From the IMG/VR virus record IMGVR_UViG_2695420521_000002, positions 35,400 to 99,399 of that record: 64,000 nt of DNA; one strand, written 5' to 3'. The stretch comes from a virus. Lineage: Duplodnaviria > Heunggongvirae > Uroviricota > Caudoviricetes. Position 1 is the first letter of the stretch. Each line of letters opens with the position of its first letter. A program made the translations under genes and the position numbers. The notes beneath the pieces were generated by a model that was not told the origin of the DNA, did no database searches, and worked only from the letters and a program-made list of their open reading frames with translations. This document shows, in pieces, positions 20,432 through 21,782 of this stretch.

Positions 20432-20456
20432 AAAAGCCCGACGTTCGGGCTTTTCT
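20432..20456 (+). terminator. intrinsic terminator after baseplate operon
   Basis: GCCCGACGTTCGGGC hairpin followed by TTTT. Confidence 0.6.
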
Positions 20457-20564
20457 GTGCAAATGGACATAACTGTAATATCGCAACACACTCTGCATTT
20501 CAGCTTAAAGCAGGCAATACAAAGACCTAATATTAATTTATGTAATAAAGATGCTTGTCACCTA

Positions 20565-20594
20565 TTGTTAAGTGGCAAAAGCGAACGGTATAAT
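20565..20594 (+). promoter_or_regulatory. sigma70-like promoter for the YeeE-like gene
   Basis: TTGTTA (20565-20570), 18-bp spacer, TATAAT (20589-20594). Confidence 0.5.
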
Positions 20595-20626
20595 CCCGCG
20601 ATTTTTTGTCGTAGGAAATAACTATA

Positions 20627-21735
20627 TGCAACAGAAACTTCTGTTCCCAATAGTATTAATTGCCTTGACTTTGTTTGCCTGGCTAGGAAATACTTTCGGA
20701 ACAAAATGGGTAGTAATGAGTATTATCGGTTTTGGGTTAGGGTTTACACTTTCATTCAGCCGCTTCGGTATTGTTTTTGGCTGGAGAGAAATGTTAACAC
20801 AAAAAAATAGTTACTATGTACGAATCCATTTACTAACTATTGCGATCGAAATACTATTGTTCACAATTTGCTTATCTTTCAGTCATTCCTTATTTGGAGA
20901 TAAGATGACTGGTAATATTATGGCAATAAGTATACCTTTCGTCGTTGGCGCTTTTTTATTCGGTATAGGAATGCAGTTGGCAGGATGTTGTGCATCAGGA
21001 ACCCTTTATTGTTGTGGTGAAGGGAGGCCTAGATTCTGGATTGTTTTACTTTTCTATGGCATTGGAACATTAATAGGAAACTCATTCAAGCCTGAATTAT
21101 CATCAATATTCCCTGGTCATATAGTAACAGTGAAAGATTTAACAGGAAATCTATGGACGGGTATGTTGATAAACTTACTCTTTGTTGGACTGCTCTATAT
21201 CTTCTTTTGTTATATTGAGAGGAATAAAACTGGACAACTAACAAGTATTTTTACTTCTGGAAGTTTATTCTGGAAAGATAGCCATTTTACTGTTCTTAGT
21301 GGTGGTATTATAATTGCAATACTGAACTCCAGTATTGTTGCCATACATGGTTCTGCATGGACTATAACTGGAGCCATCTACGAAAGTGCTTTACATATTG
21401 CTTCTTTTTTTGGTTTATTCGAGGGTAATCCAAAACTCGCAAAACCTCTATTCATCAACCCAATGGTAGGCATGTTTGCCGCTGGATTACTGGGTGCGGC
21501 ATTTTCTGCATGTCTGCTCAGGGAGAGAAACAGAACGCCGTTAACCATTCAAAATATTCTTGCAGGAATAATTGGTGGGTTATTAATGGGGTGCGGCGGG
21601 GCGTATGCAGCATGTAATTTAGGCGGTTTTTTTGATGGGACTGCTTCGGGGAGTGTGCATGGATGGCTTTGGATGTTGATGGCTTTATGCGGAAGTATTA
21701 TCGGTATACGATTAAGAAAATTATTTAATATCTAA
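20627..21735 (+). CDS. YeeE/YedE-family inner-membrane protein (sulfur-compound transporter-like)
   Basis: About 369 aa, polytopic; GMQLAGCCASG and LMGCGGAYAACNLGG motifs; strongly AT-rich; start set at MQQKLL since ORF-track start lies upstream of the -10. Confidence 0.65.
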
Positions 21736-21751
21736 GGGGGATTGGGGTTTA

Positions 21752-21782
21752 TGTCATTTTGTGTTTTTCAAAAAAAGACATA
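21752..21782. terminator. AT-rich inverted repeat between convergent genes
   Basis: ATGTCATTTT...AAAAAGACAT imperfect palindrome. Confidence 0.35.

Follow-up and report, generated by a model that had tools for sequence, protein, structure and literature searches.

Why does a phage-plasmid carry, between two of its own operons, a gene for a membrane protein of a sulfur-transporter family, and what could this protein do for the lysogen? The question is raised by the 64,000-nucleotide stretch of DNA analysed here (the window), positions 35,400 to 99,399 of IMG/VR virus record IMGVR_UViG_2695420521_000002. The window belongs to a P1-like phage-plasmid: the sequences on both sides of the block that carries the gene are 98-99% identical to phage P1, and C4 antisense RNA is also encoded. 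Phage-plasmids of the P1 group have mostly been studied as carriers of antibiotic-resistance and defence genes; here the cargo is metabolic. The answer that we favour, and that we consider fairly probable, is that the gene is a self-contained moron, whose product would import sulfur species into the lysogen in the manner of YeeE, with a pair of cysteines that may take the place of a partner protein.

The transporter and its subfamily

The gene is found on the + strand, in an open reading frame (ORF) at 20572-21735, and its likely coding sequence (CDS; 20626-21735, +) encodes a polytopic membrane protein of 369 residues. An earlier note on this DNA, made from its letters only, had recognized a YeeE/YedE-like membrane protein; this is borne out by a full-length match to PF04143 (Sulf_transp, COG2391), which spans profile positions 2-310 of 310 (E 2.9e-40, 139.2 bits against a cut-off of 27). 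The AlphaFold (AF2) model, with a pLDDT of 78.9 and a pTM of 0.82, was compared with the PDB by Foldseek: the top five matches are all S. thermophila YeeE (6LEO, 6LEP, 8J4C, 8K1R; probability 1.0, TM 0.61-0.75), while the next match after the YeeE structures has an E-value of 0.04. The profile match and the modelled structure show the product to be a single-polypeptide inner-membrane protein of the YeeE/YedE family, with the predicted YeeE hourglass fold of two homologous halves. Public annotation already names the gene product 'YeeE/YedE family protein'.

The family assignment stands, but it does not extend to either of the characterized E. coli members. Among the NCBIfam models, the best match by score is the YedE/FdhT model NF033796, with 72.7 bits against a cut-off of 350, and the TsuA models NF041049 and NF052577 give 33.2 against 645 and 66.8 against 400 bits. 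Identity to E. coli TsuA is 26%; the two halves of the protein align crosswise with those of E. coli YedE, their order being YeeE-like. As judged from these comparisons, the window protein is neither a TsuA/YeeE nor a YedE orthologue and belongs to a separate small subfamily, so that the thiosulfate or selenite uptake previously put forward becomes a guess at the level of the family.

The identities of the homologues delimit this subfamily clearly, since a tight group at 53-85% is followed by a gap, down to values of 35% or less. The subfamily is core to Aeromonas, where it was found in 28 species-level genomes, and is sporadic elsewhere, with members in Citrobacter sp., in Photobacterium carnosum and in metagenome-assembled genomes of Vibrio, Shewanella and Enterobacteriaceae. 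In Citrobacter-like genomes the gene lies about 1.5-3.8 kb downstream of a cluster of three tRNAs, and wherever its surroundings were examined it stands alone among unrelated neighbours. No TusA/YeeD/YedF-like partner was detected by phmmer searches with E. coli TsuB and YedF across the 64 kb of the window and 86 loci, and no TusA-family or sulfur-metabolism gene is present among the precomputed Pfam neighbours in Citrobacter, Aeromonas and Vibrio; a scan for TusA-like ORFs by their CPxP motif was discarded, being too noisy in the GC-rich DNA (rich in guanine and cytosine) of Aeromonas. In E. coli, tsuB is found directly downstream of tsuA.

The foreign block in the P1-like backbone

The architecture of the locus is that of a cassette, placed between converging operons. 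Its features are the following:

20430..20456, + strand: terminator hairpin of baseplate gene 5, a perfect 12-bp stem, AGAAAAGCCCGA cgt TCGGGCTTTTCT (dG -21.4 kcal/mol, z -4.8)
20459..21839, + strand: foreign block of 1381 bp, 37.4% GC, in place of 50 bp of P1-type sequence (blastn against P1 and gene-free P1-like plasmids)
20565..20594, + strand: sigma-70 promoter-like site, TTGTTA, an 18-nt spacer and TATAAT, with 10/12 consensus matches
20613..20616, + strand: Shine-Dalgarno-like AGGA, 9 nt before ATG 20626, read from the sequence
20626..21735, + strand: transporter CDS, for a predicted PF04143 inner-membrane protein with key residues G48, C122, C129-C130 and C330
21741..21791, + strand: downstream hairpin, imperfect, with 23-nt arms (dG -23.2, z -3.9), then the T-rich tail AUUAUUUUAAU
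21796..21839, - strand: new dbn 3' end, from the inserted block; the Dbn C-terminus reads ...TAKQPYITASNSN, against ...TQKPSRGNG in P1

Positions 19002-20458 and 21840-22782 of the window are collinear with P1 gene 6/gene 5 and with dbn, respectively. The spacing between gene 5 and dbn, which is 46 bp in P1 and in gene-free P1-like plasmids, is 1365 bp here. The suspected insertion relative to P1, between the terminator of the baseplate operon and the convergent dbn-ban operon, is confirmed by this comparison; the hairpin at 20430-20456, immediately to the left of it, is the gene 5/dbn terminator, also present in phage P1. On the right side the block reaches 21839, within the last codons of dbn, further than had been assumed: the swap took off the original last codons and put new ones in their place.

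The block is also foreign in composition. The gene had been described as visibly more AT-rich than its neighbours, and this holds in each of the measures used. In 400-nt windows the GC content is 35-39% across 20600-21600 and 47-54% on either side; the 37.4% of the block compares with a mean of 46.9% for the whole window, and only 1.3% of windows of its size within the 64 kb have a value as low. At third codon positions (GC3) the transporter gene has a value of 0.31, against 0.45-0.52 for gp6, gp5, dbn and ban. Since the orthologues elsewhere follow the GC content of their hosts, reaching for instance 63% in Aeromonas, the low value indicates a foreign origin rather than a by-product of the hydrophobic protein.

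With regard to the way of entry, a repeat search found in the block no target-site duplication, no terminal inverted repeats and no recombinase gene, and its arrival therefore looks like illegitimate recombination. An origin as a transposon or integron was considered and rejected, for lack of terminal inverted repeats, target duplication, transposase or integrase; the sole inverted-repeat candidate at the block, 13 nt with an 85% match, was taken as a chance occurrence. Eight variable regions have been described in P1-like phage-plasmids (PMC9603915), and the gene 5/dbn junction is none of them; none of the papers searched names YeeE together with P1-like elements or phage-plasmids.

The start of the gene is probably ATG 20626, a correction to the extent first proposed for it: AGGA precedes this codon by 9 nt, all the subfamily homologues begin there, and the annotation of E. 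fergusonii plasmid AP028818 has its 369-aa CDS starting at the equivalent ATG. A GTG at 20572, which would give a product of 387 aa, was rejected because it falls within the promoter-like site and because homologues and the AP028818 annotation both favour the ATG.

The earlier note had also given the gene its own promoter and terminator, and the two parts of this claim fare differently. Both hairpins are significant (z -4.8 and -3.9). The promoter-like site matches 10 of 12 consensus positions, but such sites are not above chance in the AT-rich stretch, where 7 are present against a shuffle expectation of 5.1 +/- 2.2. The hairpin at 21741-21791 is likely the terminator of the cargo gene: when read on the - strand it is less stable (dG -18.7) and no U-tract follows it, and 5 nt separate it from the stop codon of the convergent dbn. 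A consensus terminator scan called no terminators and missed, among others, the very stable hairpin at 20430-20456, probably because the stems were extended through flanking A/T pairs and the T-tail was lost, a caveat that concerns bidirectional terminators. No riboswitch or known RNA was found with Rfam near the transporter gene or near its orthologues.

The window contains 11 matches to the C1 operator of P1, against 0.34 expected by chance. None occurs between 15606 and 27458, none lies within about 4.8 kb of the promoter-like site, and nothing ties the transporter gene to the lysis-lysogeny switch. Because of this, and of the insulation provided by the hairpins, expression would be expected while the element persists as a plasmid prophage, and would give the lysogen an additional route of sulfur acquisition. 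As a whole, the block can be seen as a horizontally acquired cassette, formed by a promoter-like site, a ribosome-binding site, one gene and a hairpin terminator, that would have been inserted in the 46-bp gap between the baseplate and dbn-ban operons. It shares with lambdoid-type morons and with the accessory cargo of P1-like elements the single gene, the deviant composition and a place between two genes that are direct neighbours in sister phages, together with a promoter-like site and a probable terminator of its own; conversely, its site is outside the eight described variable regions, and its product is a transporter of a sulfur family, not a resistance, toxin, defence or surface-modification protein. 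It would be a typical phage moron, with a cargo that is unusual for a phage, from a protein family that is known and already annotated.

Cysteine pattern and a proposed substrate route

The pore of YeeE is lined by three cysteines, in the S. thermophila protein (StYeeE) the periplasmic C293, the central C91 and the cytoplasmic C22; E. coli YeeE requires all three, while the C22A variant of StYeeE still complements (PMC7449682). YeeD docks at an indentation on the cytoplasmic side through C22, R28, R98, E101 and E261, and brings a fourth cysteine (PMC11073785). The alignment of the window protein with StYeeE gives these correspondences:

StYeeE C293: C330 in the window protein
StYeeE C91: C122
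StYeeE C22 (C25 in E. coli YeeE): G48
StYeeE R28: R54
StYeeE R98: C129
StYeeE V99: C130
StYeeE E101: E132

The periplasmic R215 of StYeeE could not be mapped, since the middle of the protein has no sequence-level alignment. The equivalents of the re-entrant-loop cysteines C91 and C293, that is C122 and C330, are invariant in the subfamily and are kept in 118/120 and 120/120 homologues, respectively. At the position of C22, instead, every member of the subfamily has Gly, as do 113 of the 120 homologues. The motif YCCGEG is a property of the subfamily only, where C130 is invariant and C129 nearly so; the wider clade has just the two core cysteines. By the alignment, C129 and C130 would lie at the cytoplasmic face, where YeeD docks on YeeE.

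These features suggest how the protein might work. A small inorganic sulfur (chalcogen) species would cross the inner membrane; by analogy with the family, thiosulfate or sulfane sulfur/polysulfide is the most likely substrate, an expectation for the family as a whole. In the narrow central pore the substrate could be handed along thiols, from the periplasmic Cys330 to the central Cys122 and then to C129/C130. As the alignment with StYeeE and its YeeD complex would have it, the C129-C130 pair may be the cytoplasmic acceptor, freeing the protein from a dedicated TusA-like partner. A fully partner-independent YeeE channel, in which the YCCGEG pair stands in for the third cysteine as well as for the catalytic one of a TusA-like partner and a single 1.1-kb gene suffices for uptake of thiosulfate or sulfane sulfur, is a tentative proposal that we regard as rather doubtful. 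If true, partner independence would explain the mobility of the one-gene moron as well as a second capture, described below, by an IS91-type element. In any case, the subfamily could serve as a natural test of how much of the cysteine relay the YeeE/YedE family really needs, and of the partner that it requires.

Several observations weigh against import by a self-sufficient moron. E. coli YeeE needs its three cysteines together with YeeD (PMC7449682, PMC11073785), and a protein devoid of the third cysteine and of the partner might follow another mechanism or depend on TsuB/TusA of the host, acting in trans. The cytoplasmic placement of C129/C130 is drawn from the sequence alignment with StYeeE. 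The scores are so far below the TsuA and YedE/FdhT cut-offs that no function can be transferred from the characterized orthologues, and the neighbourhoods examined, of the subfamily and of a distant homologue, in Citrobacter-like genomes, Aeromonas, Vibrio and Pseudomonas, give no functional clue. Moreover, the promoter of the gene is a match to the consensus of a kind not enriched over chance, and Escherichia hosts already have CysPUWA and TsuAB, which weakens the case for a benefit to the lysogen.

The best of the alternatives, which we hold to be unlikely, is a second thiosulfate importer equivalent to TsuA/YeeE, using host TsuB (YeeD) or TusA in trans, with no special role for the cysteine pair. 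The window protein has in common with TsuA/YeeE (E. coli b2013; S. thermophila YeeE, PDB 6LEO, 8J4C, 8K1R) the PF04143 domain, the order of the two internal repeats and the predicted fold (TM 0.66-0.75). Both cysteines that are indispensable in StYeeE, C91 and C293, have conserved equivalents, R54 and E132 keep the YeeD-contacting R28 and E101, the complementation by StYeeE C22A (PMC7449682) points in the same direction, and tsuB stands beside tsuA in Escherichia hosts. Equivalence is opposed, however, by the scores on the TsuA models (33 against 645 and 67 against 400 bits) and by an identity of 23-26% (just 26% to E. coli TsuA). Furthermore, the whole subfamily has Cys for the YeeD-contacting R98 and Gly for the third cysteine; in the window protein Cys-Cys stands for R98/V99, and an extra hydrophobic helix is present at its N-terminus (residues 3-24). 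Nowhere in the genomes examined does a TusA-like gene adjoin a member of the subfamily; the window gene, without tsuB/yeeD next to it, is borne by a phage-plasmid, whereas tsuA is a chromosomal gene of the cys regulon.

A different chalcogen, or a different direction of transport, appears less probable again: zero-valent or sulfane sulfur, as in PmpAB/YedE1E2, selenium, as in YedE, or else export and detoxification of sulfite, sulfide or tellurite. The wider clade, with only the two core cysteines, is similar in this respect to PmpA/PmpB and YedE1/YedE2, transporters of sulfane or zero-valent sulfur in which the two proteins jointly have the two core cysteines (PMC11582611). Members of the family are reported to move zero-valent sulfur (PMC10812762, PMC11582611), and transport of selenium is reported as well (PMC11582611). 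YedE/FdhT (E. coli b1929, with YedF) belongs to the same Pfam family and gives the top NCBIfam score; its 'GCNL..FF.G' and 'LAGGC..G' cysteine motifs are recognizable in both halves, and chalcogen-related cargo (tciABC/TerB) is found nearby in sister P1-like elements. Yet the 72.7 bits are far under the cut-off of 350, the halves of YedE are in the opposite order to the YeeE-like one seen here, and no yedF is adjacent to the window gene. PmpAB and YedE1E2 are pairs of proteins of about 130 aa with four transmembrane helices each, in contrast to a single chain of 369 aa with a central helix and an added cysteine pair, and no selenium-utilization or sulfur-oxidation gene lies beside any member of the subfamily.

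Distribution, selection and other cargo

The cassette is rare. None of the 18 P1-like phage records contains it, nor does any of 5,426 complete E. coli genomes, and among 483 P1-like plasmids that match the flanks only 2 have it, both of them plasmids of Escherichia fergusonii, at 99.3-99.8% identity. The viral contigs of IMG/VR contain no relative of the transporter, and a phage collection gave distant partial matches only; those in records of Stx-converting phages probably reflect, we assume, flanking host DNA with yeeE. An index of raw assemblies places the exact protein in 60 sample blocks, and the gene is at the same P1-like site in all 10 places shown and in one further locus. The backbones of the carriers vary, being with or without a 100-aa ORF between dbn and ban and having either tciABC or an SPFH gene; one of these elements is integrated in a chromosome of 4.69 Mb. 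The same site on backbones that differ elsewhere suggests that the block was inserted once and that the carriers then spread and recombined.

Within P1-like elements, the gene evolves under purifying selection. When 12 copies without gaps were set against the window, 11 of the polymorphic codons proved synonymous and 3 non-synonymous; with 22.6% synonymous sites, the ratio of non-synonymous to synonymous substitution rates (dN/dS) is about 0.08 (binomial p 1.4e-5). Against a relative with 85% identity dN/dS is 0.06. Of 13 other copies compared, 12 have an intact ORF, and the remaining one comes from a low-quality assembly with six indels. The lysogenic-conversion reading of the earlier note fits with these data, since the cassette is self-contained, has no C1 operator, is rare and is maintained by purifying selection.

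That the gene is a passenger with no benefit to phage or host, either decaying or silenced by H-NS, or that it serves the phage, for instance by superinfection exclusion at the membrane, is very improbable: its great rarity (2/483), the typical silencing of AT-rich foreign DNA in enterobacteria, the promoter without statistical support and the break of the adjacent dbn by IS1 in two E. fergusonii plasmids would agree with it, but they are opposed by the purifying selection in the P1-like lineage, by the intact ORFs, by the persistence of the gene on recombinant backbones, by a separate capture beside IS91/pemIK in another Escherichia strain, and by the lack of any PADLOC defence match for the transporter, whose single PHROG match is weak and to a family of unknown function.

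The donor of the block did not emerge from the comparisons made. The closest relative outside P1-like elements, on a contig of 2 kb, has 85% protein and 80% DNA identity, with a dS of about 1.4, and an exact 24-mer of the upstream flank gave no match in JGI metagenomes. Movement in the opposite direction is instead documented in Escherichia sp. MOD1-EC7003 (NZ_PTRE01000217.1, 325-1638), where the gene is found with the -10 region, the terminator and 57 bp of dbn, with no P1 context, adjoining pemIK and an IS91-family transposase; this copy is a secondary capture, mobilized out of a P1-like context.

The presence of such a cassette suggests that nutrient acquisition can also be among the traits that P1-like elements spread in gut Escherichia. 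This implication and the one concerning the cysteine relay are both incremental rather than field-changing.

Other cargo is present in the same window. An inverse-autotransporter adhesin of the intimin/invasin/FdeC type, 1211 aa long (5511-9146, -), is located beside P1 pap, with an AT-rich flank at 8904-10066. Its Pfam domains are IAT_beta (E 6e-109), four copies of Big_1 and six of Invasin_D3; it is about 82% identical to chromosomal fdeC, is found in no P1-like phage record and recurs, at 98% identity, in a single P1-like plasmid, from E. albertii. As conversion cargo it is arguably more striking than the transporter.

Closer to the cassette, a small AT-rich insertion of 288 bp (22783-23070, 38% GC) separates dbn from ban. 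A 101-aa protein of unknown function is encoded there (22779-23084, -; phrog_12809, E 6e-46), which is absent from P1 and present in many P1-like plasmids. An SPFH/Band_7 gene (24834-25661, -; Pfam E 1e-30) occupies the place that tciA-tciB-tciC have in P1, and both alternatives occur among the sister carriers of the transporter. In the two complete carriers, the E. fergusonii plasmids AP028818 and CP070875, dbn is interrupted from the equivalent of window position 22249 onwards, and two IS1 transposase genes lie on either side of a gene for a phytase-like esterase, an arrangement that suggests a composite IS1 element. Finally, just downstream of C4/immI, at 48046-49523 (+), two AT-rich ORFs of 221 and 260 aa have hydrophobic N-termini resembling signal peptides and no Pfam match; presumably they may be sim-like superimmunity cargo.

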